Virus record (IMG/VR): IMGVR_UViG_3300023174_000112
Location: 1 to 64,000 of that record
Reading direction: 5' to 3' (one strand)
Source: a virus
DNA length: 64,000 bases
The position numbers were made by a program, and so were the translations under genes. Under the pieces are notes generated by a model. That model was not told where the DNA came from, ran no database searches, and saw only the letters and a list, made by a program, of their open reading frames with translations. Below are positions 7,787-63,024 of this stretch, one piece after another; the first letter of the stretch is position 1, and the number at the start of each line of letters is the position of its first letter.

Positions 7787-8935
7787 CTATACTTTGAACC
7801 ACGTTAGATATTGCTCTATCTTCTTGGTCACACTGGTCCAGTCATCCTGTGCAGGCTGTCGGAATATTCTCATGCTGCTGTACCAAGGACTGCTATCGCG
7901 ATTCAACATCCAACGCCAGCATGGTGCAAACCAATTCAACATCAACCAAGTGGGTCTGCCCAGAGCCGCACTCAAATGTGCAATGCTTGTGTCCACACTC
8001 AACACCACGTCCATGTGTGCAATCAATGCCGCAGTGTCAGCAAAATTTCTGATAGTGCCAGGATAGCGTGTGACTCCCAGTGCAGCCAATACAGAATCTT
8101 CTTCAGCGCTGGCATCTACTTGTAAATTAACCCATTCGTACGTGGGATTGTTTTTTATCAACTCCATCATCTTATCAAACGGCATGCCCTTGTGTGTGTT
8201 GAGCCAGTTGTCTTTGCGACCACTCCAACAAAATCCCACTCGCATGCGTTTTTTTGGACCTAGGCGTTCTTGCCATTGTTGAAACAAGTCTTGATGTGCA
8301 TTCAAGTAGCTGACCTGCTTGGGCAAGTTTTCCGTGGTTACACCCAATATACCAGGCAAGCTCATGATGGGAATCCAGTAATCAAACTCAGGAGGGGTAT
8401 CAACATATCTGCCCACCCAATCGACCACGTTGCTGCCTGACAGCATGGGAATCAATCCATCTGTGACCTGAAACAATACTCGTGCTCCGGCGGCGTGCAA
8501 GTTGAACAAGAATCGCATGAATTGAATGTTGTCTCCATGCCCTTGTTCACCTATGACCAAAATAGTTTTGTCTCGGAGATCTTGCCCGGCCCAACGAGGC
8601 TGAGCAAATTGTGGTTGGGTGCCTGCTAGGTGTTCGTAATTCCAACGACATTCGTAGGCAGGCCAACCACGAGCATAGTCGCCCTGAATCAGATAACTCA
8701 CAGCCAGGTTGAATTGTGCTGTGGGATTGTCAGGTTGCAACACCAAGGCATGTTGTAGAAATGGTATGGCTCGTTGTGGCTGACCAATTTCACGCAACAC
8801 ATTGCCGTAGTTGTTGAACGCCGACGCTGAGTCAGGATCGTCAACAAATGCCTGTGCATAACATTTAAGAGCTGCCACTGGTTGTCGGTCAGCTCTGAGT
8901 TGATTGCCTTGTTCAATTAGTTCAGATGAATTCAT
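7787..8935 (-). CDS. TPR-repeat protein fused to a GT-B (GT9-like) glycosyltransferase domain
   Basis: N-terminal TPRs (AFNNYGNVL, AQFNLAVSYL), then EQGHGDNIQF and MDVVLSVDTSIAHLSAALGRPTW motifs. Confidence 0.85.
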   Translation of the reverse strand: MNSSELIEQGNQLRADRQPVAALKCYAQAFVDDPDSASAFNNYGNVLREIGQPQRAIPFLQHALVLQPDNPTAQFNLAVSYLIQGDYARGWPAYECRWNYEHLAGTQPQFAQPRWAGQDLRDKTILVIGEQGHGDNIQFMRFLFNLHAAGARVLFQVTDGLIPMLSGSNVVDWVGRYVDTPPEFDYWIPIMSLPGILGVTTENLPKQVSYLNAHQDLFQQWQERLGPKKRMRVGFCWSGRKDNWLNTHKGMPFDKMMELIKNNPTYEWVNLQVDASAEEDSVLAALGVTRYPGTIRNFADTAALIAHMDVVLSVDTSIAHLSAALGRPTWLMLNWFAPCWRWMLNRDSSPWYSSMRIFRQPAQDDWTSVTKKIEQYLTWFKV

Positions 8936-8983
8936 GAGATATTTACAGTATATACAGGGTGGTTAATTATTTTAACAGGTCCA

Positions 8984-8989
8984 TAAATA
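8984..8989 (+). promoter_or_regulatory. T4-late-type promoter motif TAAATA, divergent from a second copy at 8940-8945 on the minus strand
   Basis: Matches the core of the T4 late promoter TATAAATA; the same motif recurs upstream of about 20 late genes in the window. Confidence 0.7.
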
Positions 8990-8990
8990 A

Positions 8991-9060
8991 AAGTCAACGC
9001 AATTCTGCGTTTTATGCGGCGTTAACCCACCGCGTAGCGACTAGAACTCGCATCGGGCTT
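8991..9060 (+). ncRNA. Candidate structured cis-regulatory leader RNA (four-way junction)
   Basis: Closing stem AAGTC/GGCTT encloses three hairpins (AACGCA/TGCGTT, TATGCGG/CCGCGTA, GCGA/TCGC); lies between a late promoter and the SD at 9065-9070. Confidence 0.55.
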
Positions 9061-9078
9061 CTTTAAGGAGAAATACAA

Positions 9079-9918
9079 ATGGGAAGAGCTCTCAAAATTC
9101 AAAAAAACAACGTTGGTTCAGGAACCACCGTCACTGGATCACCCCCAGTTACCTCATACAATCAAACCATTCTCACAGATGCTGCTTACCCACCGTTTTC
9201 AGCATTGACCAATCCGGTGTACAATTCACCAGTTCAGACACTTGACAGTGCTCAGTTTTTGGGAGTGGTTGGTGGATCACCAGCTACTAGCACACCTACT
9301 GCTACCTATCCTGAAATTTCTGCATTGGTCAACATTACCTTGGCCGACGGTTCAGACAGCTACACCGCCACAAGTTCATACACAGGTCGTATCATACGCC
9401 AAAAAGGTTCACACAAGTTCCTGGTTGCAGCCACTGGCGCAACCATTGCTGACGAAGATATGATCGTGGGACAAGCCTATCAAATTGCTGTGCTTGGAAC
9501 AACCAATTGGCAAGCCTGTGGTGCACCAGCTGGTGCCGCGTTGGGCGATGTGTTTACTTGCACAGCAGATGCTGGTGCAGGCACAGGCGAAGTTTATGCA
9601 GTTGGACAATGTGTGTTGTCAAACACTGCTACTCCAGCAACTGGCTACATGAGTATTCTATATTCAGTGGGCGACAGCGCCGCTGTGTATGCCAGCTACA
9701 TCACCAACAAGTGGGTGCGTGACTGGAACGGTATGACATATCAAAACTATTCTCCTACCAACTACGGTGTCAACATTCAAAGCAGCGAAAACTTCTATGT
9801 TACCAACTTCTTCACAGACGAAGGCACAGTTACATGGTCTGGTGCAGAAGTTATCAACAGTGCTTACGCACAAAATGGTACACTGCAATTGGCTCAGATC
9901 GCCAGCGTTACTTCTTAA
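9079..9918 (+). CDS. Putative virion structural protein of unknown function
   Basis: Strong SD, late promoter and own terminator; Thr/Ser/Gly/Ala-rich; IIRQKGSHKFLV motif. Confidence 0.6.
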   Translation: MGRALKIQKNNVGSGTTVTGSPPVTSYNQTILTDAAYPPFSALTNPVYNSPVQTLDSAQFLGVVGGSPATSTPTATYPEISALVNITLADGSDSYTATSSYTGRIIRQKGSHKFLVAATGATIADEDMIVGQAYQIAVLGTTNWQACGAPAGAALGDVFTCTADAGAGTGEVYAVGQCVLSNTATPATGYMSILYSVGDSAAVYASYITNKWVRDWNGMTYQNYSPTNYGVNIQSSENFYVTNFFTDEGTVTWSGAEVINSAYAQNGTLQLAQIASVTS

Positions 9919-9935
9919 TTTGTTGAGTAACCCAG

Positions 9936-9966
9936 TCCTCCCAGCTACATACTGGGAGGATTTTTT
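9936..9966 (+). terminator. Intrinsic terminator that sequesters the SD of the next gene
   Basis: TCCTCCCAG-ctacata-CTGGGAGGA followed by T6, directly before the ATG at 9967. Confidence 0.8.
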
Positions 9967-10554
9967 ATGAGCGCATCATTTGTACTGGGCAACGGCGTCA
10001 GCAGACTGGCCGTGGATTTAAACCAACTAAAACAACGTGGAAAGATCTACGGGTGCAATGCCTTGTACAGAGAATTTGTGCCAGATGTGTTGATCAGCAC
10101 AGACAAAGCCATTGCTGGCGCCATACAAAATTCAGGCTATGCTCAAAGCAATCTCATGTACACTCGCAGACCCTTGCCAGGACTGGGGGCAAGAACTGTG
10201 CCCCAAAACTACTACGGCTATAGTTCAGGCCCTATTGCAGTGGCCATGGCAGCCCTGGAACGACCATTGGCTGTGTATCTCTTGGGGTTTGACATGGGGC
10301 CAAAGCCAGGCAACCGATTCAACAATGTTTACGCAGACACAGAATACTACAAAAAGAGTTCAGCGAATCCCACTTTCACTGGAAACTGGGTCAGGCAATT
10401 GGTCACAGTGACCAAAGATTTTCCCTTGATCAGTTTTCACCGTGTGACAGGCGATACCACAGCGTCAATTGCAGAGTTGGAAAATATTAAAAATCTGCAT
10501 CACATGCCCATGACAGACTTTGTTGACCGTATAAATAATCAAAAGGATCTTTAA
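9967..10554 (+). CDS. Rossmann-like protein resembling Maf/DUF115/GT42-type glycosyltransferase domains
   Basis: FVLGNGVSR, IYGCNALYR, PDVLISTD, SSGPIA and VYLLGFD motifs. Confidence 0.55.
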   Translation: MSASFVLGNGVSRLAVDLNQLKQRGKIYGCNALYREFVPDVLISTDKAIAGAIQNSGYAQSNLMYTRRPLPGLGARTVPQNYYGYSSGPIAVAMAALERPLAVYLLGFDMGPKPGNRFNNVYADTEYYKKSSANPTFTGNWVRQLVTVTKDFPLISFHRVTGDTTASIAELENIKNLHHMPMTDFVDRINNQKDL

Positions 10555-10770
10555 ATGTCAGCAGTCAAAAATGTCAACGGCGACTATACTATTCAAACCA
10601 CTGGCGCAGGCACAACTGTGGCAATCAACTCAACTGCATTGATTGTTCCTTCATACACCAATACCACTGCTAGAGATGCTGCTATCACCAGTCCAAAAAA
10701 AGGAATGATAGTGATAGCCGCCACCACTTTCTATGGCTACACTGGCGCTGCTTGGGTCGCATTAAATTAA
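10555..10770 (+). CDS. Small fibre-associated/virion protein
   Basis: 71 aa; TAAATA at 10532 and SD upstream; VPSYTNTTARDAAITSPKKGMIV motif of the kind seen in fibre proteins. Confidence 0.6.
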   Translation: MSAVKNVNGDYTIQTTGAGTTVAINSTALIVPSYTNTTARDAAITSPKKGMIVIAATTFYGYTGAAWVALN

Positions 10771-10828
10771 ACTGAAAAACTGTAATCTCGTGCTCTGGTA
10801 AATACAACTAAGAGGACGAAATTTACCT

Positions 10829-13800
10829 ATGGCACAGCAGATCATCAACACCGGTGCAAACGCAAACGACGGCACCGGTGAACCCTTACGTGAAGCATTT
10901 ACCGCAGTAAATGACAACTTCACGGAGATCTACACCGCCGGCCCAGTAGGCACAGATGTACGCATTGTTGGTAATACAATTACCACTCTGCAGATCAATC
11001 AGAATCTAACACTCAAGCCCAACGGCATCGGGTTAATTCAAGCCAATGCCACAGTAGTCCCCAGTGTAAATCTAGTATATGATTTGGGTTCTCCCACCAA
11101 GCAATGGGACAGCGTTTATGCTGGATACTTCATTGGTAATGGCGCATTACTAACAGGCGTTGTTGGTGGCAATGCAAGCAACAGTTTCTCAACCATCTCA
11201 GCCAATGGCATCAACATTGTAGCAAATTCTTCCACTGGTGTTCTTACATTAACTCCTGGCAACAACATTACCATTGTTGGTTCTGCTGGATCAAACACCG
11301 TAACGTTTGGAGTATCAGCTTCTCCTAGTTTTTCTGGCAATGTCTCTGGTGGTAATTTTTTAACTGGTGGCACAGTCAGTGCTGCTGGCAACATAACTGG
11401 TGCTAACTTACGCACCACTGGATCAATTTCCACTGCTGGCAATATCACAGCCAACAACATTGTGTTCAGTGGCAACTTGGTTGGCAACATATCTACCACT
11501 GGCAACATCATTGCTGGCAATGTGATATCCACGCAGGCCATAATTGCCGCGTCAGACATCACTTCGGCGGCCAACATCACAGGCAATTACATTTTTGGTA
11601 ATGGTGCATTTTTAACTGGCATTTCGGGCGGTGCTGGCAATTACAGCAATGCTAACGTTTCTGCATTCTTGCCCACATACACTGGCAATGTTTCTGGTGC
11701 TTATTTCATAGGCAATGGTAGTCAGTTAACTTCCGTCACTGGTGCCAATGTTGTGGGCATAGTGTCAAGAGCCAACATTGCCAATGTGGCATATTCAGTT
11801 GCTGGCGCCAACGTTACAGGCACGGTAGACAATGCCAACTATGCTGGCTTTGCCAATCTTGCGTATACTGCATACGGCAATGGCATCATTGGTTCTGTGG
11901 CCACAGCCAACATTGCCAATGTGGCATATTCAGTATCAGGTGCCAATGTGGTGGGCACTGTGGCCAATGCCACCTACGCTGTCACCGCCGGAACAGCTAC
12001 CACTGCCAACACTGCCAATACTGCTAATCGAGCCAATATTGCCAATGTGGCATATTCAGTTGCTGGAGCCAATGTCACAGGCAATGTGGCCAATGCCACC
12101 TATGCTGAATTTGCCAATTTGGCATACTATGCATATGGCAATGGCATTATTGGATCAGTCGGCAGTGCTAACACAGCCAACATTGCCAATGTGGCATACT
12201 CAGTATCAGGTGCCAATGTTGTGGGCACTGTGGCCAACGCCACTTATGCTGTGTCAGCAGGTTCAGCAGGTTCAGCCAACACCGCCGGCCAGGCCAATAT
12301 TGCCAACATTGCCAATGTGGCATATTCAGTTGCTGGAGCCAATGTCACAGGCAATGTGGCCAATGCCACCTATGCTGAATTTGCCAATCTTGCATACTAT
12401 GCATATGGCAATGGCATTATTGGTTCAGTCGGCAGTGCTAATACTGCCAACATTGCCAACATTGCTAATGTGGCATACTCAGTTTCAGGAGCCAATGTTG
12501 TAGGCACAGTTGCCAATGCCACCTATGCGGTCACAGCAGGATCAGCCAACACTGCCAACCGAGCCAACATTGCCAACGTGGCATACTCGGTTGCAGGGGC
12601 TAACGTCACAGGCAACGTGGCCAATGCCACCTACGCTGAATATGCCAATCTTGCATACTATGCCTGGGGCAATGGTATTGTTGGACAAATTAGTACAACC
12701 AGCAACATCATTGCTGGCAATATTTCAACCACAGGTAATGTTACCAGCACATATTTCTTAGGCAATGGATCACAACTCACCGGCGTTGTTGCCACTGATG
12801 TTGGAGTATTGCCCAGTCTCAGTGTCACTGGCAATGCACAAATTGGCAACGTAAGAACAGCAGGACAAGTTAGTGCTGCTGGAAACGTTACCACAGGAAA
12901 TTATTTTGTAGGTAATGGCGCATTTTTAACAGGCATTGTGGCCAGTGCAGGCAGTGAAATATTATATGCCTGTAGCAGTGTAAGAATTGGTGGCGCCAAC
13001 GCCAATGTCACAGTCAGTGTCAATGCGGTGAGCAATGTGGCGGTGTTTACCACTGGTGGCATGTCTACCACGGGAAATATTATTGCCAACGCCAATGTTC
13101 TTGCCAATGGGCAGATATCAGCAGTAGGCAACGTCACTGGTAATTATATTTTTGGTAATGGCGCATTACTAACTGGAGTCATTACCAGTGTAGCCAACAT
13201 CAACAATGGCACAAGTAATGTTACTGTGGTCAGTTCAGGTGGTAACATCACTGTTGGAGTCAACGGCTCTGGCAACATAGTAGTTTTTGCCAACACTGGA
13301 GCCTATGTTGATGGGGTGGTCAGCGCAAGTGGCAACATAACAGCCAATTACTTCATTGGTAACGGATCACAACTGACTGGGGTTACTGCCGCTGGGGTCA
13401 ATGCCGCAGCATTAACAGGTACTACGTTAAGCTCAAATGTTTTATATTCGAGCTTGACACAAGTTGGCAACTTATCCAATTTAAGTATTGTTGGTAACAC
13501 AGTTGGTGGTAATTTATTAACAGCCGGTATAGTAAGCGCCGCAGGTAATATCTCAGCCAATTACTTTATTGGTAACGGATCACAACTGACTGGCATTGAT
13601 GCTACCAGTATTCAAAACGGCAACAGCAATGTAAAAGTTTATGCCAATGGCAATGTGTCAACATCAATAAATGGCACATCAAACATTGTAGTAGTGTCTG
13701 ACGCAGGACAATATGTTACAGGGGCAGTTTCCGCGTCAGGTAATATCACTGGTGCTAACTTAGTTACAAGTGGCCTGGCATCTGTCACTGGCAATATTAT

Positions 13801-38385: not shown

Positions 38386-38785
38386 CCAACAATGCAATTT
38401 TGTCTTGCACAGCTTCTATGTTCATGGTTGACCATAATCCTGGGTGCATTGGTCTAGGCCACTGCCCAGGATCAATCCAGGCATAGCCCAGGTGTTCGTA
38501 GTTCAACACCGGCACAAATTCGTCAGCTACTACACAAACCCAGGTATTGTATTCAAATTGTCCGTCGGCACTTGTGAATTTTTCCAAAGGAACCAGGCGT
38601 GTATACTCAGGAAAAAATCCCAGCTCTTCTATGCACTCACGTTCCATGGCACCCAGCAAGGTTTCTCCAGTTTCCACCTTGCCTCCGGGCAGTCCCCAAG
38701 CACCTGGGTGTCTGTCATCGTTGCGCAACAAATAAAGATACCTGCCGGTGGCACTGCTACGAAACCAAACTCCCACTGCTTTCAA
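38366..38785 (-). CDS. NUDIX hydrolase
   Basis: Nudix box GGKVETGETLLGAMERECIEELG; likely TTG start overlapping the stop of the upstream gene. Confidence 0.9.
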   Translation of the reverse strand: MKAVGVWFRSSATGRYLYLLRNDDRHPGAWGLPGGKVETGETLLGAMERECIEELGFFPEYTRLVPLEKFTSADGQFEYNTWVCVVADEFVPVLNYEHLGYAWIDPGQWPRPMHPGLWSTMNIEAVQDKIALLEKEKPA

Positions 38786-40182
38786 AGCACAATGCTCCAA
38801 GTTCCGCCATCGTATACCCCTTGATAGCTTTTGATCCACTGTGTTCCGGTCCACTCGTATTGTGTGCCAGTGTGTATGTTGGTAACATAATTTGCAGTGG
38901 ACTGATCACTGGACACAAACACCACACGCCAACGTGCGCCATCAAATTCAATGATGTCATTGGCCGATGCTACCAGTGGTTGTCCACCAGTACCAGCCCA
39001 GGCCGTGGGATTGGCTGGATTGGCATGATCGCCAGTGCCCTCAGTCAACAAATATCGTTGTCCCAACAGCGCACTGTCTAAGCCGTCACCAGGTCCACTC
39101 AACAGCGGATTGATAATGGCATCAATTGGTGCCAAGGTATTTTGTGGTGCAGTATCTGGGTCCACGTCAAAAATCACCAGTCGGTCATCATTGGGGTTGA
39201 TTACAATGGTGCCCACAATCACTGATCCGTCGGCTTGGTCTAAACGTATTTGACTGATGCCTGGACGATACACGCCATAAGCACTGATCAACGCAGGCCA
39301 CAACAAATTGCTGCCAGCCACAATTTGCGTGGGTACCAGGGTGTCTAAACTGCCGTCGGGCACTATGGTGGGTGCGTACAAACACTGTATTTGATTTTCA
39401 ATCACAACCAGTTTGTAGTTCCATGGAGTAACTAATAGTCGTGTGCCCAGCAACAAATCATTGTTGGTAATGGCATCATTCAAATCGCCTTGAGCATCGT
39501 ACATTGACGCAACAACACGTTCCACCACACCCAATTTCTTGACCTTGGCCGGTGGAGATAACCAAATTGGCATGCTAAATGTCAAAGTAGCAATATCAAT
39601 GGGATTTTCTGTGCCAATGGGCACAGTACGACTTGACCATACTGTTCTGTCCAGGTACATCACACTCAAACTGGTCCAGTCAATGTAGTTGTCTGTGCTT
39701 TGAATTTCCAAACTGGGATTGAACAGCGTCAAAATCTGTTCCAGTAACTGCAATTTCTGATTGGTGTTTGACGTCCATATGTCCACATTGACAGTGAGTT
39801 TGAATGGCACAGGCATGAGTCGTTCAACTGTGAATGCATTGCCTTGTGTGGTTTCGTAACTTTCAGTCACACTGTCATAAGTGCGTTGTCGTACATTGAT
39901 CTTGCTCACAAAGTATGGATCTTGTGTGCGACTTTGTTCGTAGTCCAGGCCGGTGATGTAAAAAGTTATCAACGGAGTTGATGGCAAACTGTTGCGACTG
40001 TTTTCTTGTATGATGGTTTGTGCGTTGCGAGTAGCGTCACCATAGCGCACAGGCACACGGATCAGCGCGGCATTGTTTACCCCGTCATTTTCGTTGCCGT
40101 ATTCAATTTGAAAACCTGAAAACACTCTTGTGATTTGCAACAAGAATCGGCGTATTTGGGCATCATAAAAAAATTGTTGCAT
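38782..40182 (-). CDS. gp15: Tail sheath stabiliser/terminator (T4 gp15-like) with a C-terminal extension
   Basis: FFYDAQIRR, RVPVRYG, MPVPFKL and QLLEQILTLFNP motifs. Confidence 0.75.
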   Translation of the reverse strand: MQQFFYDAQIRRFLLQITRVFSGFQIEYGNENDGVNNAALIRVPVRYGDATRNAQTIIQENSRNSLPSTPLITFYITGLDYEQSRTQDPYFVSKINVRQRTYDSVTESYETTQGNAFTVERLMPVPFKLTVNVDIWTSNTNQKLQLLEQILTLFNPSLEIQSTDNYIDWTSLSVMYLDRTVWSSRTVPIGTENPIDIATLTFSMPIWLSPPAKVKKLGVVERVVASMYDAQGDLNDAITNNDLLLGTRLLVTPWNYKLVVIENQIQCLYAPTIVPDGSLDTLVPTQIVAGSNLLWPALISAYGVYRPGISQIRLDQADGSVIVGTIVINPNDDRLVIFDVDPDTAPQNTLAPIDAIINPLLSGPGDGLDSALLGQRYLLTEGTGDHANPANPTAWAGTGGQPLVASANDIIEFDGARWRVVFVSSDQSTANYVTNIHTGTQYEWTGTQWIKSYQGVYDGGTWSIVL

Positions 40183-41559: not shown

Positions 41560-41594
41560 TCTATATTTATAGTACTTTGGGTTTACCGTCAAGC

Positions 41595-41626
41595 GGGTTG
41601 ACCAATAATTCCCAAAATGCTATAAT
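41595..41626 (+). promoter_or_regulatory. Sigma70-type early promoter, copy 1
   Basis: TTGACC-17 nt-TATAAT with an extended -10 TG. Confidence 0.85.
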
Positions 41627-41653
41627 ACGGACTTAACAACAAAGGAGCCAACA

Positions 41654-41923
41654 ATGAGTGATTTAGTTACCGATTTGCACAGCGAGATGATCAACAGTGT
41701 AGCACCAAATTACAGTATCAATTATGAAGCAGAGGCTCTTGCTAGTTTTGAAGACTCAGGTTATGACTTGATGGAAGCACTTGAGACTCGTGCTACAGAC
41801 TTTATTGCAGAGACAACTGGGGCAGATGTGCGCGAGGACTTGGGTGGGCTCACAGTATTTTTCCGTGGTAATACTTTGGTTGCATTTTACGATTACGAGC
41901 GATTTAAAGGGCATGTGTTCTAA
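41654..41923 (+). CDS. Hypothetical acidic early protein
   Basis: SD AAGGAG; lies between an early promoter and a hairpin. Confidence 0.75.
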   Translation: MSDLVTDLHSEMINSVAPNYSINYEAEALASFEDSGYDLMEALETRATDFIAETTGADVREDLGGLTVFFRGNTLVAFYDYERFKGHVF

Positions 41924-41925
41924 TA

Positions 41926-41949
41926 CCCTGAGCCCGAAAGGGCTTTGGG
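41926..41949 (+). terminator. GAAA-tetraloop hairpin, probable terminator or processing site
   Basis: AGCCC-GAAA-GGGCT followed by TT. Confidence 0.6.
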
Positions 41950-41978
41950 TTGACCAATAATTGCCATTCTGCTATAAT
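41947..41978 (+). promoter_or_regulatory. Sigma70-type early promoter, copy 2
   Basis: TTGACC-17 nt-TATAAT; shares GGGTTGACCAATAATT and TGCTATAAT with copy 1. Confidence 0.85.
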
Positions 41979-42001
41979 TACATATAATTTAAGGAGCCCT
42001 G

Positions 42002-43142: not shown

Positions 43143-44087
43143 ATGCTCGAAAACACTAGATATTTGCTGGACAAGGTCGAATTTTACATCACGAATGTTT
43201 GCAACTTAAATTGTGATCAGTGCAACCGATTCAATGATTATAAATTTACCGGATGGCAACGTTGGAGTGACTATGAGGCCATTCATCAACGTTGGGCTAA
43301 ATTGATTGACATCAAGCACCTGGTTATCCTTGGTGGCGAGCCGTTGCTCAATCCTTCTATAAATGAATGGATAACAGGATTAGGCAACATATGGAAAAGG
43401 CCGATACAGATCTTAACCAACGGAACACGATTAAATCAAACACCGGGACTTTATGAAACATTGCTGTCCTGGGATCCAGACCCCACACACCTAAAGCATT
43501 GGATTGGTATCAGTGTTCACAATATGGCAGACATGGATTTTTATGTACAAGAAGCCAAAAAATTTCTTCACGGAGATATACAAACTTCAACAGATAAAGC
43601 AACCATATATGGAGCTGATTTGGCACTAGTGGACGAGAACGGCGTTCGAGTACATTTTTGGATACAAGACAATTTTTACAATGCCGCAGTTACCAACAAT
43701 AACAACGGCGAGTTAACATTGTTCAACAACGATCCAGAACTGGCACACCGACACTGTGGATTTGTACAATGGAAAAACTATCATTTTATACGTGGTACTT
43801 TGAACAAGTGCGGTCCTGCCCCATTGTTTCCTGAGTTTGATCAACAACATCCACTGGCCATCAGCTCAGCTGATCGTGAACTGATCAATGCATATCGGCC
43901 CTACATCATAGATCAAGTGGAACAGCAAGGCACTGATATTCTAAAGACAATTGACGACATGCTGCCTCAATGCAAATTTTGCCCAGTGCCTGCAGATATG
44001 AAATATCGACAAATTCATGCTACACTGAAAAATAAAACAATTCCTATATCGCAAATCAAAGCAAAAGAACTGCAGGAATTGCAATAA
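43143..44087 (+). CDS. Radical SAM protein
   Basis: CNLNCDQC (CxxxCxxC), GGEPLL and TNG motifs, plus C-terminal Cys residues. Confidence 0.9.
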   Translation: MLENTRYLLDKVEFYITNVCNLNCDQCNRFNDYKFTGWQRWSDYEAIHQRWAKLIDIKHLVILGGEPLLNPSINEWITGLGNIWKRPIQILTNGTRLNQTPGLYETLLSWDPDPTHLKHWIGISVHNMADMDFYVQEAKKFLHGDIQTSTDKATIYGADLALVDENGVRVHFWIQDNFYNAAVTNNNNGELTLFNNDPELAHRHCGFVQWKNYHFIRGTLNKCGPAPLFPEFDQQHPLAISSADRELINAYRPYIIDQVEQQGTDILKTIDDMLPQCKFCPVPADMKYRQIHATLKNKTIPISQIKAKELQELQ

Positions 44088-44109
44088 ATACAGGGACTTG
44101 GAGTCCCAC

Positions 44110-44880
44110 ATGCCAGAACAGCAACAACAATCACTGCCCACACTGAAGCAGAACTTAATCGAATATGTCAAGCTACAGTTGGGCGGCGACATAATTGATT
44201 TAGAATTAGACCCCTCACACTACGAAGCGGCTTATCAAAAAACCATTGGCACTTACCGCCAACGAGCCAACAATGCCTATGAAGAAAGCTACAGTTTCAT
44301 GCAGTTGGTCCAGGACGTTAACATTTATGAACTGCCACAAGAAGTCATAAGTGTGCGACAAATCTTTCGCAGAACATTTGGCGACAGTTCAGGTCCGTTT
44401 GCATCAAACTTTGATCCGTTTGCACAAGCTTCGGTCAACGTTTATCTAATGAACTTCAACGTGGCAGGTGGCTTGGCCACTTACGATTTCTACAGTCAAT
44501 ACATTGAACTGGCTGGTCGTATGTTTGGCGCATTCATGGCCTACACATACAATCCCGTGACAAAGAAACTGCAACTGATCCGTGACCCCAAAGGCTCAGG
44601 CGAAACTGTGTTGCTGTGGAGTTATAACTTGAAGCCTGAATTTAACTTGTTGAGCGATTATCAAATTAGTCAATGGATCCGTGATTACATGGTGGCCAAC
44701 TGCAAAATGATCATTGGCGAAGCACGTGAGAAATTTGGCACCATTGCTGGACCGCAGGGCGGCGGAACCTTAAATGGCGCTGCCATGAAGACTGAAGCAC
44801 AGACTCAAATGGACGCTCTCATTGAACAACTCAAAATGTACGTGGACGGTTCACAGCCACTCACCTGGGTCATTGGATAA
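44110..44880 (+). CDS. gp13: Neck protein (T4 gp13-like)
   Basis: YVKLQLG..IDLEL, WIRDY and REKF..IAGPQGGGTLNG motifs; TAAATA upstream. Confidence 0.75.
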   Translation: MPEQQQQSLPTLKQNLIEYVKLQLGGDIIDLELDPSHYEAAYQKTIGTYRQRANNAYEESYSFMQLVQDVNIYELPQEVISVRQIFRRTFGDSSGPFASNFDPFAQASVNVYLMNFNVAGGLATYDFYSQYIELAGRMFGAFMAYTYNPVTKKLQLIRDPKGSGETVLLWSYNLKPEFNLLSDYQISQWIRDYMVANCKMIIGEAREKFGTIAGPQGGGTLNGAAMKTEAQTQMDALIEQLKMYVDGSQPLTWVIG

Positions 44881-44884
44881 GGAA

Positions 44885-45586
44885 TTGACAATAATAAAAG
44901 ATGTATTGATTGTAGGGTGCAGTTTTGTTCATGCCTTGCAGAATATTAATTACTCAAGAATTGATCGATACGGATCTTGTGCGGCATCAAATACCAGCAT
45001 TGCGTCAAGAGTAATGTATCAACTTGCCCAGCAAGAATATAAAAAAGTAGTTGTAATATGGTCCGGAATTAATCGACTCAGTGTCCCGGTAGATGTTGAG
45101 TTACACAAGTTATACCAACTTGATAGGGATCCTTACACGTTTTATGACAATCAAGATCCAATGGTATGGTATCACAGCGGTGGAATACTAGCCGCTGAGG
45201 TTCACTCAAATATTCCAAAGTTTATTAAAAACTATTTTAAAGCTCAATATAAAACAGTTTCTCCTCGTTACTTAACAGATCAAACATTACAAAACATTAT
45301 TGGAGTTCAGTCGTTGTTGGAAAATAAAAAAATCAAGTACGAGATGAACTTTATATACGATATACACAAAGATTATTCAACATTTAGATGGGGATACTCA
45401 TTGGGAAAAATTGATACCAGTTCTCCATTGTATACCGCAGTGAACTGGGATAAGATTACTCAACACACCAGCCTATATGAATGGGCAAAATTACACGGTC
45501 ATCTGGCAGATGATCAGTGGCATATTACGTCAAACGGAATGATCAAATGGTTTGAGTCTGATTTGGGAATAGACTTACTCTCTTAG
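44885..45586 (+). CDS. SGNH/GDSL-like hydrolase or acyltransferase
   Basis: N-terminal VLIVGCSF, central WSGINR and C-terminal DDQWH (DxxH). AT-rich; probable TTG start. Confidence 0.5.
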   Translation: MTIIKDVLIVGCSFVHALQNINYSRIDRYGSCAASNTSIASRVMYQLAQQEYKKVVVIWSGINRLSVPVDVELHKLYQLDRDPYTFYDNQDPMVWYHSGGILAAEVHSNIPKFIKNYFKAQYKTVSPRYLTDQTLQNIIGVQSLLENKKIKYEMNFIYDIHKDYSTFRWGYSLGKIDTSSPLYTAVNWDKITQHTSLYEWAKLHGHLADDQWHITSNGMIKWFESDLGIDLLS

Positions 45587-45587
45587 A

Positions 45588-45616
45588 TAGACACGTATCT
45601 AATATCCTGCTATAAT
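45588..45616 (+). promoter_or_regulatory. Sigma70-type promoter, probably giving a leaderless transcript
   Basis: TAGACA-17 nt-TATAAT with TG extension; the -10 box ends 5 nt before the ATG at 45622. Confidence 0.75.
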
Positions 45617-45621
45617 CAATC

Positions 45622-46140
45622 ATGGACTTGATGATTGACATTGAAGGTTTGGCCACAGGCCCTGAAGCAACAATCTTAACCATTGCGGCCCAGGCGTTTG
45701 ATCCTCTTGGCGCTGGCTACTACAAACAGCAGTATTATGCCAGGGTTGATCTTGAAAGCCAAGAAACACGTACCATTGAACAAGGCACTATTAATTGGTG
45801 GGCCACTCAAGGCGCCGCACAAGACGAAGCCTTTGCAGAAGATGGTCGTATACCCTTGGACCAAGCACTAGATGAATTGCACAAGTTGTGTTGGAAATGC
45901 AATCGTATCTGGATGAACGGACCCACCTACGACGCCAACATACTTGAGCATGCTTACAAGAGTTATGGTAAGCCTTTACCTTGGCAATATTATAAGATAC
46001 GTGATGCACGAACAGTGTACAGTTTATATCCAGGGTTGCCCAAACCTGCGACCAGCCACCATGCGCTGGAAGACTGCCGCAGACAAATCGACATGCTGCA
46101 AGCCACTCTTAAACATTTAAACGTTACTGAATTGGCCTAA
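45622..46140 (+). CDS. DEDDh 3'-5' exonuclease (Rv2179c/DexA-like)
   Basis: LMIDIE, WMNGPTYD, IRDART and HHALEDC motifs. Confidence 0.88.
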   Translation: MDLMIDIEGLATGPEATILTIAAQAFDPLGAGYYKQQYYARVDLESQETRTIEQGTINWWATQGAAQDEAFAEDGRIPLDQALDELHKLCWKCNRIWMNGPTYDANILEHAYKSYGKPLPWQYYKIRDARTVYSLYPGLPKPATSHHALEDCRRQIDMLQATLKHLNVTELA

Positions 46141-48076
46141 TCCAGTTTCCTGTGCCTTGCCAGGGAAATTTGAAAACAAAATCTTTTCCGAATTCACCAG
46201 GTGGATGATCCTGTCCATGAATGAAAATTTCATGGTCAAAGTCGGCATGCCAATCACCGTTGATATCTATTTTAAATAGGTACCTGGCTTTGTAGTAACT
46301 GTTCATCCTTGGTAAATTAAATACGCCTAGTTCTTGTGTGTCGTACTCAGGATCAAATTTTAAATCTAATTCATATGGACCCAAGGCCAACCATAGCACT
46401 CTTAGCAAAGGCCAAATTTCGTTGACCACAGTGGCATTCAATGGATGGTCAGTTATTTTGATAATATCAAAATCAAACTGTTCGTAAGGTATGTCAGTGA
46501 TAATGTTTGCTGGATCATATGTTAATGTATAGTGCTCGGGCTTTTCCAGGCCTGGCCGCTCATTCATAGTATGAAAACCATGTCTGCGATTTTTTATCAA
46601 ATGGTTCAAAATAACATTGACACATTTATAACGTATCAACCGTTGAAAAATAGTGTTGGTAAAATCATTACTACGCCATTGATGAGTCATTTGATGCTCT
46701 GAAATTCCAAACTTTGATCGTTCATAGTTCAATGGAGTATCCATGCCAATTTGACAAGTACCAAAACTCCGACCAAATATGTTATAATTTCGAGTGCGCC
46801 ATAGCAGTGTCATGGTATCTGCTACATCATTGTAGCCTTCGCCAGGGAACCCCACAAACCAATTGGTGTGACACTGAATGCCTGCCTTTGTAAAATCTTT
46901 TAAGTTTTGTTCAACTGCATCTCTCTTAACATTCTTTTTCATTAGATCAAGCACACGCTGGCTACCAGATTCGATACCAAAGCTCAACATGCCGCACCCA
47001 CCTTTTTTGAGAATTTTGATATACTCGAGATCCATTCGCCCGTCACATCTTGCATATCCCATCCAGTGCAAGTAAATTTTACGGTCAATTAATCCTTGGG
47101 CAAATTCTTTTAATTCTTTTAAATTGCCGTTGACCAAGCTATCAATAAACCATACACTGGTAATTCCAAGGGTGTTGTATTGATATTCCAGTTCATCTAA
47201 TATGTTGGTTGCTTGCCTACCCCGATATCTCCAAAAAGTGGTTTCGCTACAAAATTGACACTTTGCCACACATCCTCGACTGAGTTCGGCACTCACGCCT
47301 TTTTGGTTATACATTGATAGATCAAAATCGCTGTAGTCTGGGTATGGTAAACTGTCAAGATCTATTCTGATACTTTTGTCATGCACTAGAAATTTTTCAT
47401 CAATCTTGATACCAGATTCAATTTTTTCCATTAAATCTAAGAATACCACTTCTCCTTCGCCCACTACAATATGATCTATTATGCTGGTATCTTCAATTTT
47501 TTCTTGTATGGCAGTTGGACCACCTGCAATTATAACAATATCAGGTAAAAGGATACGCAGTTGTTGAATCATCCATTTTGTGGCTTTGTTGGTAGTGGTA
47601 AAAATACTAAATCCCATGACATCGGGTTTGAATGCCACAATTTTTTCCAAGTATTCATTCAACAGGGGTTCGATCATTGGATGTATTTCGGTATAATAAT
47701 CATCGTTGGTCCACTTCCAATCCTTGTACCCGCCCCAATAAGTTTTGTCAAATTTTGAATAGCATGCGGCATTTATATCATATGACACAGTTGCAAATCC
47801 ACTGGCTCTACTGAGTGCAGTGATCCTGGCCAAGTTATATGGAGGAATGTACGGGGCCCACTCAGGCAGTAGAGCCAATGCCAACCGTGTTTTTCTAGTA
47901 GATTGATGATTGATAACAGGTTGAATGAGATTTTTTTGTGGTGTTGATTTTCTGAGATTGGCCAGCTGCAATGCCTTGAGCATGGCCATATCCCGAGCGC
48001 CACCATCGGTGGTTTCAACTAATTTTGTGAGATCTGGAGCAGCCGCAGACTGTATATCAAAAATCTTATTATTCAT
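46124..48076 (-). CDS. Cobalamin-binding (class B-like) radical SAM protein
   Basis: B12-binding-type region (PPYNLA, IIAGGP, VVGEGE), SRGCVAKCQFC and FGIESGSQRVLDLMKK. Confidence 0.9.
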   Translation of the reverse strand: MNNKIFDIQSAAAPDLTKLVETTDGGARDMAMLKALQLANLRKSTPQKNLIQPVINHQSTRKTRLALALLPEWAPYIPPYNLARITALSRASGFATVSYDINAACYSKFDKTYWGGYKDWKWTNDDYYTEIHPMIEPLLNEYLEKIVAFKPDVMGFSIFTTTNKATKWMIQQLRILLPDIVIIAGGPTAIQEKIEDTSIIDHIVVGEGEVVFLDLMEKIESGIKIDEKFLVHDKSIRIDLDSLPYPDYSDFDLSMYNQKGVSAELSRGCVAKCQFCSETTFWRYRGRQATNILDELEYQYNTLGITSVWFIDSLVNGNLKELKEFAQGLIDRKIYLHWMGYARCDGRMDLEYIKILKKGGCGMLSFGIESGSQRVLDLMKKNVKRDAVEQNLKDFTKAGIQCHTNWFVGFPGEGYNDVADTMTLLWRTRNYNIFGRSFGTCQIGMDTPLNYERSKFGISEHQMTHQWRSNDFTNTIFQRLIRYKCVNVILNHLIKNRRHGFHTMNERPGLEKPEHYTLTYDPANIITDIPYEQFDFDIIKITDHPLNATVVNEIWPLLRVLWLALGPYELDLKFDPEYDTQELGVFNLPRMNSYYKARYLFKIDINGDWHADFDHEIFIHGQDHPPGEFGKDFVFKFPWQGTGNWIRPIQ

Positions 48077-48142
48077 AGCGTATTTACAGCAATTGGATAA
48101 CTATGATATTGTTTCTTTATTTGAAAGATGTTAATATACACT

Positions 48143-48799
48143 ATGAGTAAAATTATTGGCGTTTGTGGATTTATTGGTTCAGGCAAAGATACCATTGCAG
48201 ATTATCTTGTAAATTTACATCACTTCCGTAGAGAAAGTTTTGCCAACACACTCAAAGACGCTGTGAGTGCTGTGTTTGGCTGGGACCGGACCATGCTGGA
48301 GGGCCGCACCAAGCAAGCCCGTGAATGGCGTGAACAAGTGGATCCTTGGTGGGCCGAACGTCTGGGAATACCACACTTGACACCACGTTGGATATTACAA
48401 AACTGGGGCACAGAAGTATGCCGCAAAAATTTTCACGATGACATTTGGATTGCCAGCTTGGAAAACAAACTACGTGCCAGCACCGACGACATTGTTATAA
48501 GCGACTGCAGATTTCCCAACGAAATAGCAGCCATCAAAAAAGCTGGTGGGCGGGTGGTGCGTGTGGTACGTGGCGCTGAGCCTGAGTGGTATGGCGCAGC
48601 CGTGAGCCGCAATCGTGGACCCAACGGCAACTCAAGCTGGGCACTCAGTGGCAGGAAACTAGAACAACTGGGCATTCATGACAGTGAAACAGCCTGGGTA
48701 GGCACACGATTTGATGCTGTGCTAGACAACAATGGTACCTTGGAAGACCTATATCAGCAGGTCAAGCGTCTGGCTCAAGATCCCCCGGCCGCCAAATAG
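48143..48799 (+). CDS. Deoxynucleoside monophosphate kinase (T4 gp1-like)
   Basis: IIGVCGFIGSGKDT P-loop, LQNWGTE, ISDCRFPNE and HDSE motifs. Confidence 0.9.
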   Translation: MSKIIGVCGFIGSGKDTIADYLVNLHHFRRESFANTLKDAVSAVFGWDRTMLEGRTKQAREWREQVDPWWAERLGIPHLTPRWILQNWGTEVCRKNFHDDIWIASLENKLRASTDDIVISDCRFPNEIAAIKKAGGRVVRVVRGAEPEWYGAAVSRNRGPNGNSSWALSGRKLEQLGIHDSETAWVGTRFDAVLDNNGTLEDLYQQVKRLAQDPPAAK

Positions 48800-54483: not shown

Positions 54484-54839
54484 GTACTGTAAATTACACC
54501 AATCCCAACACAGACTTGTCTGTGAGAATTTTTGACAGCTTCTATGACTATGATGTCAATATTCCCGCTGACGAATATGATGTGGTACACACTTATTTTT
54601 TAAGTGTGATGACCACCCGGCAAGCTGCTGGAAACTTTACTGTGAGTTTGTTCAGAGTAGCACAAGACACTGGCATTAACCCACTGACATTGTTGAAAGA
54701 ATTTCAAGGTCTCAATGGCACAAATCTCAGTGCAAGTTTAGCCTATTATCTCAACAGTATTCGCAGTAGAGCTACACTGTTGGGGGTTGGAGCTCCTGTG
54801 ACTCCAAACTTTTATCAGGCTAGAAATGTATTGGTATGA
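54480..54839 (+). CDS. Hypothetical protein
   Basis: ATGA overlap with both neighbours; start revised to MSTVNY. Confidence 0.7.
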   Translation: MSTVNYTNPNTDLSVRIFDSFYDYDVNIPADEYDVVHTYFLSVMTTRQAAGNFTVSLFRVAQDTGINPLTLLKEFQGLNGTNLSASLAYYLNSIRSRATLLGVGAPVTPNFYQARNVLV

Positions 54840-55267
54840 GTCACTGGGCACAAGGACCGTACACAGTAATTAACCGCGAAAAATACGTGGGCAATGGCAC
54901 ACCACGTTATAGATCTGGGTGGGAACTCAGCTTCATGAAGTTTTGCGATAGCAATGATCATGTGTTGCAGTGGGCAAGTGAGAGCATTGCTATTCCGTAT
55001 CGTCATCCACTCACAGGCAAGATGACACAGTACATTCCAGATTTTTTGATCACGTATCGTACCAGCAACAACACAATCAAAGCCGAGTTAATCGAAATCA
55101 AGCCTAAAAAACAAAGCGTGGTAGAATCAAAAATGAGTGCCAAAGATCGTGCTGTAGTGGCAATAAACTACGCCAAATGGGATGCAGCCACCAAATGGGC
55201 ACGCCGCAACGGGCTGATGTTTAGAGTCATCACTGAGAACGATATGTTTCACAACGGCCGAGCTTGA
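54836..55267 (+). CDS. gp4: Head completion nuclease (T4 gp4-like, PD-(D/E)xK fold)
   Basis: YRSGWE, WASE..IPY, YIPDF, IEIKP and N.AKW.AA motifs. Confidence 0.9.
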   Translation: MSHWAQGPYTVINREKYVGNGTPRYRSGWELSFMKFCDSNDHVLQWASESIAIPYRHPLTGKMTQYIPDFLITYRTSNNTIKAELIEIKPKKQSVVESKMSAKDRAVVAINYAKWDAATKWARRNGLMFRVITENDMFHNGRA

Positions 55268-59459: not shown

Positions 59460-59461
59460 TC

Positions 59462-60895: not shown

Positions 60896-60908
60896 TATAA
60901 ATACCCAT

Positions 60909-61715
60909 ATGAAAAAACTACTATTTGTGCTGTTGCTCACAGCCTTTCAATCAGCACAGGCCTGGGATCAAACTGCCCCTCTAGCAGTGGACCACTGTAA
61001 AGCCCACAATCCTTATGGTTGGGCACAGACTAGCAAACCGGTCACAGCCATTTGTCGTAGAGCATACTTTGTTGCTTATGATGCAGCCGCAAAGATTCCC
61101 AACTATGTCACATACACATTGACACCACCCAATGCACTAGGCTGCTGGCCAAGAACCAATGCGTTTGTGGCTGATGCTAGTGTAGCCAATGGACCACGTC
61201 CAGATGACTATGCTGGCACCGGCTACGACAAAGGTCATGCTGCACCTGATGGTGACTTATCATGGGACCAACAAGTGGAATACGAAAGTTTCTTAATGAC
61301 CAACATGTATCCACAACTGGGTGGACTTAATCGTGGCATTTGGAAACTGCTGGAAACTTCAGTGCGTGGCTGGACTGTGCAACAAAATCAAGCCTACACA
61401 ATCTATGTGGGTGCAGTATACAACACAGCCACTGATAAGAAAATTGGCAATGGTGTTGTTGTGCCACATGGTTTCTACAAGATTGTGATCAACAACCAAA
61501 CAGGTGCCATGGCTGGTTGGTACTTCCGACACGAAGGTGGACAGGGCAATGATTTGACCAAGGCTCGTGCAGCCATATCGGCTATAGAAAACAAAGCCGG
61601 AGTGAAGTTTGCTTATCCTGCCAATGCCCGGGAACTGCCCATTGGCAGCGAATGGCCCGTGGACTTTGGCGCACTCACAACGGCCAAACGTGCCAAATGC
61701 AAAAACAGTGACTGA
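60909..61715 (+). CDS. DNA/RNA non-specific endonuclease (NucA/Serratia-type) with a Sec signal peptide
   Basis: YDKGHAAP, SFLMTNMYPQ..LNRGIW and VPHGFYKIV motifs; N-terminus MKKLLFVLLLTAFQSAQA. Confidence 0.9.
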   Translation: MKKLLFVLLLTAFQSAQAWDQTAPLAVDHCKAHNPYGWAQTSKPVTAICRRAYFVAYDAAAKIPNYVTYTLTPPNALGCWPRTNAFVADASVANGPRPDDYAGTGYDKGHAAPDGDLSWDQQVEYESFLMTNMYPQLGGLNRGIWKLLETSVRGWTVQQNQAYTIYVGAVYNTATDKKIGNGVVVPHGFYKIVINNQTGAMAGWYFRHEGGQGNDLTKARAAISAIENKAGVKFAYPANARELPIGSEWPVDFGALTTAKRAKCKNSD

Positions 61716-61717
61716 GC

Positions 61718-61846
61718 ATGATTCACTATCACTTGTATCACGCCGCTTGGACAGCGGCGTTTGCATGGTTGATATGGCAACATGGTTGGATTCCGTTTGT
61801 CGTAGCGTATCTGGTCATTGGCACCATTTGTTTCTGGCGAGCCTGA
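61718..61846 (+). CDS. Small 42-aa hydrophobic membrane protein, not in the ORF track
   Basis: Translated by hand: MIHYHLYHAAWTAAFAWLIWQHGWIPFVVAYLVIGTICFWRA. It fills the gap between the nuclease and the next late motif. Confidence 0.5.
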   Translation: MIHYHLYHAAWTAAFAWLIWQHGWIPFVVAYLVIGTICFWRA

Positions 61847-61863
61847 TTCACCGTAAATAACGC

Positions 61864-63024
61864 ATGTCTAACTTTTATTGTGCCGCGCCCTGGCGGGGAC
61901 TGCATATCAATCCCCGAGGCGATGTCAAAACCTGCTGTGCTGGTGACCCCAACATGTTGGGCAACCTCAATGATCATAGCATTGAACAAATACTCAATAG
62001 CAATTTAATGACTGAGATACGTGCCAGTCTCTCACAAGGACAAGCACACGAATACTGTTCAAACTGTGTGCGAGCAGAACGGTTTGGCGCAGACTCAGAA
62101 CGTGCCTGGCACAACAATGTCAATCCTGACTTTGATTACAGCACCGCAGGCGATCAATACCATTATCCTGTGATTGTAGACGTGCGTTGGAATACCACAT
62201 GCAATTTGAGTTGCAACTATTGTGGCGAAGCATGCAGTAGTAAATGGGCAGGAATCAAAAACATACCTTTTAAATCTGGTGCTAGGCCCTACTATGAACA
62301 AGTGTGTGACTTCATTGAACAACACTATGAACACATACACGAAGTTGCGCTAGTGGGCGGCGAGCCGTTGTTGCTGCCAGAGAACGATCGACTACTGGAT
62401 GTTATCCCAGACACTGCTATTGTCACACTGATCACTAACTTGAATGTGGATTTACAAACAAACAAAATATTCCGTAAATTAGCACAGCGCAAAAGAGTTG
62501 GCTGGAGCATGAGCTTTGACAACATAGACCAACGTTTTGAATACGTACGACACGGCGGCAACTGGATGGTGTTGCAAGAAAACTTAAAGACCATACAACA
62601 GTTAATGAAGTCACAAGGACAGTGGGGCGGTGTTCATGCAGTGTACAACATGTACAATGCCACACGCATTTGTGAATTCAGACAGTTTGTGCAAGATGCA
62701 GGCGCCACTGTATTATGGCAAAACTTGTTTCAACCTGAGTACTTGGATCCGTTCCTGCACGGACCTGAGTTAGCTGATTTGGCTGCACAAGAAATTGAAA
62801 ATTTCTATGCCATGAATATAGCAACACCAGCTGAACGCCAATTCTTTGATCAGGCATTAAATAATTATCGTGCAATAAAACAAGAACGTCCTGGGATAAC
62901 ACAGCAGTTCCGCCAGCACATACATGACAACGAATCCAAGTATCATACTGATACTGCTGGTAAGTTCAAACAGTTATGGCCTGAATTAGCAGAAAGAATA
63001 TTGAATGATATCGCCACCAAATAA
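61864..63024 (+). CDS. Radical SAM protein with an N-terminal SPASM/twitch-like domain
   Basis: FYCAAPW..GDVKTCC..LGNL..CSNC, then CNLSCNYC and GGEPLL. Confidence 0.9.
   Translation: MSNFYCAAPWRGLHINPRGDVKTCCAGDPNMLGNLNDHSIEQILNSNLMTEIRASLSQGQAHEYCSNCVRAERFGADSERAWHNNVNPDFDYSTAGDQYHYPVIVDVRWNTTCNLSCNYCGEACSSKWAGIKNIPFKSGARPYYEQVCDFIEQHYEHIHEVALVGGEPLLLPENDRLLDVIPDTAIVTLITNLNVDLQTNKIFRKLAQRKRVGWSMSFDNIDQRFEYVRHGGNWMVLQENLKTIQQLMKSQGQWGGVHAVYNMYNATRICEFRQFVQDAGATVLWQNLFQPEYLDPFLHGPELADLAAQEIENFYAMNIATPAERQFFDQALNNYRAIKQERPGITQQFRQHIHDNESKYHTDTAGKFKQLWPELAERILNDIATK

Follow-up and report, generated by a model that had tools for sequence, protein, structure and literature searches.

A TPR-containing glycosyltransferase and a small Maf-fold protein between the capsid and fibre genes of an uncultured freshwater jumbo phage: a candidate module for virion glycosylation

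The capsid-to-fibre locus

We analysed a stretch of 64,000 nucleotides of viral DNA (IMG/VR record IMGVR_UViG_3300023174_000112, positions 1 to 64,000; hereafter the window), which forms the beginning of a viral contig of 90 kb. Between its capsid gene and a cluster of giant fibre genes lie two predicted glycosyltransferases (GTs) that are the subject of this work: a GT9-like enzyme with tetratricopeptide repeats (TPR-GT) and a small protein with the fold of Maf transferases (mini-Maf). An earlier note, made from the letters of the sequence, had proposed a phage-encoded system modifying its own virion, built from a TPR-GT9, a Maf-fold, a NUDIX, an SGNH-motif and three radical S-adenosylmethionine (SAM) genes and acting on its capsid or on fibres dense in N-x-S/T; all of these features exist.

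7787-8935, minus strand: TPR-GT, TPR plus GT9-like GT-B glycosyltransferase, 382 aa, three TPR repeats at residues 1-100
8936-9078: divergent control region between TPR-GT and the 9079 gene, a 143-bp spacer with two promoter-like motifs back to back
8940-8945, minus strand: TAAATA, 4 nt before the TPR-GT start codon
8984-8989, plus strand: TAAATA, upstream of the 9079 gene and its long leader
9079-9918, plus strand: conserved Ser/Thr-rich protein between the two transferases, 279 aa
9967-10554, plus strand: mini-Maf, Maf/GT42/MptE nucleotide-binding fold, 195 aa
10829-38340, plus strand: five fibre genes of 2432, 443, 4422, 694 and 1064 aa

The order capsid, TPR-GT (on the opposite strand), Ser/Thr-rich protein, mini-Maf and fibres is kept in all 44 IMG/VR loci found with TPR-GT, and equally in four complete relatives of 343-364 kb. 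Across the 44 loci, identity is about 95% for the capsid protein and falls to 55-70% for the three module genes. For whole-genome comparisons we used these four complete relatives (G001-G004), joined for some counts by one incomplete relative; TPR-GT and mini-Maf are each present as a single copy in all five, about 1 kb apart.

The slot between capsid and TPR-GT is empty in the window and is an insertion hot spot in relatives (for example L001 3345-4094, L005 1048-1809, L022 11139-11987 and L002 11146-11922), where GIY-YIG-like and HNH-like endonucleases, a His-box membrane protein or unannotated genes of 339-374 aa are inserted. A radical-SAM-like gene occupies it in just one locus, and we rejected such a neighbour of TPR-GT as a conserved feature.

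Distant homologues of TPR-GT in unrelated phages likewise adjoin capsid or tail-fibre genes. One follows the capsid gene of a 44-kb podovirus, with FkbM methyltransferase, galT-like and acyltransferase genes nearby; another stands between the tail-fibre and VrlC-type genes of a Synechococcus myovirus; a third, in S-SRM01, has a tail-fibre gene and a sulfotransferase close by. When bacterial genomes were scanned with the TPR-GT alignment, the only full-length match (52% identity) was on a 183-kb contig binned to a Haliscomenobacter sp. metagenome-assembled genome (L153, NZ_JBBAKG010000001.1). The contig probably stems from a related phage and was binned with bacterial DNA; as a clue to the host it is weak at best.

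The phage itself is a member of an abundant, uncultured lineage of jumbo T4-like myoviruses from fresh water, with a PA5oct/Rak2-like capsid. The window encodes a T4-type portal, prohead protease, scaffold, Gp23-type capsid protein, sheath, tube, gp15-like protein and large terminase. The capsid protein shares 65% identity with its counterparts in Pseudomonas phage PA5oct and Vibrio phage 2.275.O, and 61-64% with those in other jumbo phages; megablast of the window against cultured phages returned no nucleotide-level match. Relatives are plentiful in IMG/VR and other metagenome assemblies, two of the complete genomes have terminal repeats, and the RNA runs that contain parts of the window are metatranscriptomes from lakes, fresh water and estuaries. 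A gp55-type late sigma factor is encoded by each of the four complete relatives, and the phage looks strictly lytic and T4-like. Inside its tail module, at 54836-55267, we note a gene with a TnsA-like endonuclease N-terminal domain, probably a homing-type endonuclease.

Folds of the transferases and composition of their candidate acceptors

The AlphaFold2 (AF2) model of TPR-GT (pLDDT 86.8, pTM 0.85) has TPR helices over residues 3-100, followed by a GT-B domain (117-382). Its Pfam matches are to TPR families (E 1e-9 to 1e-12) and to Glyco_transf_9 (PF01075; 26.2 bits, cut-off 22); no GT41 family is among them, and Pfam puts the catalytic domain in GT9. Structure search (VIA) with the GT-B domain agrees: the best match is the GT9 enzyme 3tov (Z 18.6 over 250 aa, root-mean-square deviation (rmsd) 3.2), followed by WaaF 1psw (18.0), WaaC (17.3) and TibC (16.5, 244 aa aligned). 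When the full-length model is used in Foldseek, SPY and OGT rank top. Altogether, the predicted architecture resembles that of protein O-glycosyltransferases of the FlmG/OGT/SPY type.

TPR-GT carries the donor motif D-T-x-x-x-H-L-x-x-A-L-x-x-P of CAZy GT9 and PF01075. A profile of the catalytic domain aligns its VVISVDTavaHLsgALgRP segment to WaaC residues 256-275, with a weak E of 0.17, and D315, T316, H320, L321, G326 and P328 are invariant among 24 homologues. The enzyme is no WaaC or WaaF orthologue, since its scores are far under the NCBIfam cut-offs (TIGR02193, 24.7 bits versus 185.3; NF008204, 18.3 versus 437). The family of its catalytic domain is huge, with 37,706 cluster representatives, the best-scoring of which are giant proteins with two to six matched domain stretches.

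The mini-Maf was likewise recognised from its AF2 model (pLDDT 85.8). Searched with VIA against 48,161 PDB chains, it has as top match the Maf protein 5mu5_A (Z 12.6, 166 of 195 residues aligned, rmsd 3.2), and the runners-up, CstI (Z 9.0) and MptE HPPK (8.9), come about 3.6 Z units lower. It superposes on residues 272-513 of 5mu5, the central catalytic domain; 5mu5 is also the top Foldseek match (E 3e-4), and a language-model lead (Atlas) connects it to PF01973 at 0.90. At the level of sequence it has no Pfam match, and a profile search of PDB sequences gave nothing significant. We take the mini-Maf for a putative transferase whose modelled fold resembles that of Maf. Homologues with 34-39% identity are found in pelagimyophages (Pelagibacter phage HTVC008M, L159 6995-7825, and phage Mosig); in HTVC008M, three places match the mini-Maf. 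Structure prediction of the enzymes and their co-occurrence with fibres across relatives were checks suggested in the earlier note, and for these two genes both came out in its favour.

The Ser/Thr-rich protein encoded between them has no Pfam or PHROG match, and a profile search of PDB sequences gave nothing significant. We considered its reading frame as the Maf-like gene and rejected it, as the product has no detectable family and the Maf fold belongs to 9967-10554. The protein is found in all related loci in several allelic types with 43-97% identity, and it could be a virion protein or an acceptor of the transferases.

The five fibres are the other candidate acceptors. As the earlier note described, they are nearly uncharged (3.7-7.7% Asp, Glu, Lys and Arg) and dense in N-x-S/T sequons (2.9-5.0 per 100 aa); Asn makes up 10-14% of their residues and Ser plus Thr 21-25%, and they are rich in Gly too. 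The note took this density for a sign of glycosylation, an argument that fails because the reversed motif S/T-x-N is equally enriched: 240 against 220 sequons in the 4422-aa fibre and 84 against 85 in the 2432-aa one. Adjacent N-S/T pairs are depleted, and the pattern is the i/i+2 alternation of polar residues expected of beta strands. Known relatives of both transferases O-link their sugars to Ser or Thr. Each fibre holds zero to four Cys, and with almost none of this residue, thioether cross-links are excluded.

Putative late-type promoters and the radical-SAM repertoire

In the window, the motif TAARTA stands exactly 4 nt before an ATG at seven sites, versus 1.09 expected, and none of 100 shuffles reaches seven. 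Genes so preceded include TPR-GT, each of the three radical-SAM genes, a virion protein gene at 41559 (minus strand) and the gene at 55282. The contig as a whole has 13 TAARTA sites at a distance of 4-5 nt from a following ATG or TTG, and ten of them begin open reading frames (ORFs) of at least 80 aa. Conservation points the same way: TAAATA-N4-ATG is kept in 42 of 43 TPR-GT homologues, the motif precedes radical SAM 1 in all 14 close relatives with upstream sequence and is found before most orthologues of radical SAM 3, in each case with variable spacer and flanks.

The T4 late promoter has TATAAATA at -10. TAAATA also stands ahead of the portal, tube, virion-protein and three fibre genes, usually further upstream (for the fibre genes 10829, 19487 and 32822, as TAAATA or TAAGTA). 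Because it precedes structural genes and the relatives encode a gp55-type sigma factor, it is reasonable to read TAARTA as a T4-type late promoter; a 4-5 nt spacer would then imply leaderless or nearly leaderless mRNAs. The earlier note had described the 4-nt arrangement before TPR-GT and the three radical-SAM genes correctly, and its addition that several structural genes share it holds loosely: in most of the clearly structural genes, TAAATA precedes the start by 6-33 nt, with a Shine-Dalgarno site after it. The same arrangement also precedes a non-specific endonuclease (60909) and unannotated genes, so that a shared motif does not define a functional system. At 41593-42001, two near-identical sigma70-type promoters (TTGACC-N17-TATAAT) lie ahead of 41654 and 42002; early- and late-type control elements are therefore interleaved in the structural block.

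The remaining genes of the proposed system are spread over the window, and related ones continue beyond it:

38366-38854, minus strand: NUDIX hydrolase, PF00293 at 53.5 bits, Nudix box GKVETGETLLGAMERECIEELGF at residue 58
43143-44087, plus strand: radical SAM 1, generic MoaA/viperin-like core, 314 aa, PF04055, CxxxCxxC at residue 20, TAAGTA-N4-ATG
44822-45586, plus strand: SGNH-motif protein, by motif evidence only; homologues begin about 22 aa later
46124-48076, minus strand: radical SAM 2, class B (B12-binding plus radical SAM), 650 aa, TAAATA-N4-ATG
61864-63024, plus strand: radical SAM 3, N-terminal-twitch family NF033640, TAAATA-N4-ATG, immediately ahead of the terminase gene
Contig 68524-73697, beyond the window: locus of NF033640 expansion
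L157 6294-15920: locus of NF033640 expansion
L158 3576-18497: locus of NF033640 expansion
Contig 74888-75655 (L146 11888-12655): fusion of an RfaE-II-like nucleotidyltransferase and a cupin, TAAATA-N5-ATG

The three radical-SAM genes are of three different kinds, all with CxxxCxxC. Radical SAM 1 is limited to a subset of relatives (21 loci); its full-length close homologues, in 15 IMG/VR loci at 78-94% identity, keep the same slot wherever flanks are visible, and a 40% homologue lies inside a radical-SAM operon of G004. Radical SAM 2 matches PF02310 (39.2 bits) and PF04055 (62.5 bits), with CVAKCQFC at residue 269. Its best NCBIfam matches are PhpK and C-methyltransferases of ribosomally synthesised and post-translationally modified peptides, all far under cut-off, and no equivalog cut-off is reached. 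A pattern scan of IMG/VR found no relative of it, tblastn gave distant matches only, and a 43% orthologue lies elsewhere in G002.

Radical SAM 3 belongs to a large family. It scores 214.4 bits against NF033640 (cut-off 170), covering model positions 1-396 of 398, and is matched in 176 IMG/VR stretches. Each complete relative encodes 11-21 radical-SAM genes, 9-17 of them above the NF033640 cut-off; no copy above it was found in 14 control genomes. Many of these paralogues are arranged in operons of five to seven overlapping genes, interleaved with a NodU/CmcH carbamoyltransferase and unannotated proteins, and the interleaved genes have no Pfam matches.

In the SGNH-like protein, G32-C33-S34, G82, N84 and D231/H234 are invariant across 28 homologues (33-90% identity), with blocks I, II, III and V in order. 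The protein itself has no Pfam, NCBIfam or PDB-sequence match, and none of the 105 homologues of its family carries a Pfam domain; the one lead is DUF6071, carried by 14% of the members of one neighbouring cluster. Together with the B12 radical SAM it is missing (44098-48799) from the closest relatives L045 and L046, and L047 has in the same slot a different pair of SGNH (38% identity) and B12 radical-SAM (26% identity) genes. By these comparisons, the two genes behave as a strain-variable, swappable cassette.

The NUDIX gene has a complete Nudix box (GX5EX7REUXEEXGU). Its NCBIfam matches are weak and mixed (MutT, NudG, NudI, NudE), with no sugar-specific signature, and it adjoins the gp15-like gene in relatives too. 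Read from the GTG at 38854, the ORF overlaps that gene; the GTG at 38776, 5 nt after the gp15-like stop, is probably the true start, giving about 136 aa.

Thus the claim of a single system did not stand. What its members share is a promoter type: the B12 radical SAM and SGNH genes form a variable cassette, the NUDIX gene is generic, and no radical SAM is tied to the GT-fibre module. The radical-SAM, SGNH-like and NUDIX genes are probably separate late-promoter cassettes, some of them strain-variable, rather than obligate parts of the module, and probably form part of a far wider set of radical-SAM and tailoring genes in this lineage.

Just past the window, the contig encodes GT8, GT2, an FkbM methyltransferase, three weaker methyltransferase-domain matches and an SDR-like Rossmann protein. 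KpsS/KpsC-like identities were considered for paralogues in this downstream cluster and rejected, as Pfam gave no match for them up to E 1. For the nucleotidyltransferase-cupin fusion, the NCBIfam model that fits best is domain II of RfaE, the ADP-heptose synthase (E 1e-19), and the gene is kept in all five relatives at 70-75% identity.

A possible route to virion glycosylation and its alternatives

What survives of the proposed phage glycosylation system is therefore its core, the TPR-GT and mini-Maf, on the strength of fold, fixed place and late-type motif; membership of the radical-SAM, SGNH and NUDIX genes falls away. We tentatively propose, at not quite an even chance, that the virion is glycosylated late in infection by the GT9-TPR/mini-Maf module set between capsid and fibre genes. 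The TPR domain would bind a structural protein in the cytoplasm, either the giant uncharged fibres rich in Ser, Thr and Asn or the Ser/Thr-rich neighbour, and the GT9-like domain would O-link a sugar to it. This sugar would probably be of heptose type, from an ADP-activated donor provided by the host or by the phage's own RfaE-domain-II-like nucleotidyltransferase. A second sugar would be attached by the mini-Maf, perhaps an ulosonic acid taken from a CMP-sugar of the host, and GT2, GT8 and the methyltransferases further along the contig (one of FkbM type) could extend and methylate the glycan. A sugar-coated virion is thus plausible in this phage.

Such a mechanism would resemble known systems. 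FlmG of Caulobacter crescentus, a TPR plus GT-B enzyme, is a dedicated cytoplasmic O-glycosyltransferase of flagellin, which its TPR domain binds (PMC7591256). The phage enzyme shares the N-terminal TPR and C-terminal GT-B domains and, like FlmG, would be soluble and cytoplasmic; both are encoded beside genes for a filament-forming structural protein, Ser/Thr-modified in the case of flagellin. They differ in size and donor: FlmG has 596 aa and uses pseudaminic acid, whereas TPR-GT has 382 aa, three TPRs and a GT9 donor motif of ADP-heptose type. The TibC/AAH enzymes (PDB 4rap, 4rb4), which share the GT9-type GT-B fold, O-heptosylate many Ser residues of long, repetitive beta-helical surface proteins (autotransporters) in the cytoplasm; unlike TPR-GT, TibC is an iron-binding dodecamer without TPR, and WaaC, WaaF and 3tov score slightly above it. 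With Maf proteins (Magnetospirillum 5mu5; Shewanella Maf-1 and Maf-2), the mini-Maf shares the central catalytic fold, common also to GT42 sialyltransferases. Maf-1 picks its acceptor via a TPR domain (bioRxiv 10.1101/2023.12.03.569772).

For virions, the precedent is in mycobacteriophages, which are glycosylated by phage glycosyltransferases (Freeman et al. 2023, as cited in PMC12619734). By the account given there, their GT genes too are in the structural block, and decoration of the virion is proven where here it is proposed; the enzyme families are other ones, the hosts are actinobacterial, and the targets are the C-termini of capsid and tail-tube subunits.

Several points weigh against virion glycosylation by this pair. 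The PF01075 match of TPR-GT is confined to residues 297-329 and covers the donor motif alone. PF01973 is not matched by the mini-Maf in a Pfam search even at E <= 1; with 190-229 aa in relatives, against about 600 aa for a true Maf, it is one third the size and has none of the N- and C-terminal acceptor-binding domains (TPR or helical) that flank the catalytic fold there. In pelagimyophages its homologues are placed between uvsY and uvsW, away from fibres. As for donors, NeuB and the CTP_transf_3 family, the synthase and the CMP-sugar synthetase of a nonulosonic-acid pathway, are absent from the four complete relatives, so that a CMP donor of this type would need a host source. The possession of both a GT9-type transferase and an RfaE-II-type enzyme suggests an ADP-heptose-like donor; this idea is a lead only, because the RfaE-II-like score (70.9 bits) is far under the equivalog cut-off of 181.5. 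The sequons of the fibres say nothing on glycosylation, and late timing of TPR-GT is deduced from its promoter motif. Lake metatranscriptome contigs mapped on positions 6000-12000 give heavy coverage of the capsid gene and light coverage of the 9079 gene; at the 88% likeness used, the mapping is uninformative for the fast-evolving TPR-GT, and contigs give neither transcript starts nor timing.

Among the alternatives, the one that fares best, though still unlikely, takes the radical-SAM, SGNH-like, carbamoyltransferase and methyltransferase genes for an independent pathway, with late timing as its sole tie to the GT/Maf module. Its product would be a small molecule, a cofactor-like compound or a tailored sugar nucleotide; alternatively, the enzymes would act on proteins directly, for instance on fibres by C-methylation or epimerisation. 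The expansion of radical-SAM genes in every complete relative, their operons with NodU/CmcH carbamoyltransferase and the swappable SGNH/B12 radical-SAM pairs are all in line with it, as is a second type of B12 radical SAM, co-operonic with a small nucleotidyltransferase. However, no precursor peptide or known pathway was recognised, the interleaved operon genes offer no family assignment, and the scarcity of Cys removes thioether cross-linking of fibres; these enzymes may also tailor the same glycan.

Somewhat less likely again is that the target of the transferases and of the glycan genes downstream is the envelope of the infected host (lipopolysaccharide (LPS) core, capsule, or a surface protein such as flagellin or pilin) instead of the virion; remodelling it could block superinfection or keep progeny from adsorbing to debris. 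The closest solved folds of the TPR-GT catalytic domain are indeed LPS heptosyltransferases, GT2, GT8 and FkbM are families typically found in polysaccharide synthesis, and the nearest solved relative of the mini-Maf glycosylates flagellin, a host protein; a 2026 preprint, by its title, reports proteins of huge phages that are envelope-associated. But LPS heptosyltransferases have no TPR, and the scores against the NCBIfam WaaC/RfaC models, 18-25 bits for cut-offs of 185-437, speak against such an identity. The TPR arm, the late-type promoter and the invariant place in the virion-gene block favour a phage protein as target, and seroconversion is of no evident use to a phage that looks strictly lytic and T4-like.

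Improbable, finally, is hypermodification of phage DNA or nucleotides against restriction by the GTs, radical SAMs, a deoxynucleoside monophosphate (dNMP) kinase and the NUDIX hydrolase: the four complete relatives have neither the ThyA/dCMP-hydroxymethylase (PF00303) nor the TGT/DpdA (PF01702) family, the two best-known entry points to base hypermodification, which makes a DNA target less likely, the TPR domain points to a protein partner, and TPR-GT and mini-Maf stand in the structural block, not the replication block. In its favour, T4-like phages glucosylate DNA, the B12 radical SAM lies beside the dNMP kinase and an exoribonuclease, other radical-SAM genes lie among gp32 and UvsX, and DNA hypermodification by viral glycosyltransferases is on record (Pyle et al. 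2024, as cited in PMC12619734).

A more far-reaching form of virion glycosylation, which we regard as speculative and distinctly unlikely, would have several dozen genes build a tailored fibre glycan, the phage counterpart of the glycosylation of Mimivirus fibrils. GT9-TPR, mini-Maf, GT2, GT8, the methyltransferases, the ADP-heptose-type nucleotidyltransferase, the carbamoyltransferase, SGNH esterases and the 9-17 paralogous radical SAMs of N-twitch type may all take part, and radical-SAM chemistry may diversify the sugars between strains.

To our knowledge, virion glycosylation by virus-encoded enzymes has been shown only for mycobacteriophages and giant eukaryotic viruses. A 2025 paper on aquatic jumbo phages ('moraphages') reports core glycosyltransferases and mentions virion glycosylation as a possibility only (PMC12619734); our literature search found no paper describing the GT/mini-Maf-fibre module or the radical-SAM expansion. 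That expansion is very large in the same phages, and no known pathway is recognised in it. If the proposed glycosylation is true, the two compact soluble enzymes (382 and 195 aa) would be of use as protein-glycosylating tools for glyco-engineering. It would also extend virion glycosylation to an abundant, globally distributed lineage of lake phages, in which a flagellin-type transferase module would bear on host recognition by the fibres, on resistance of the virion to proteases and grazing, and on the prediction of fibre structures.

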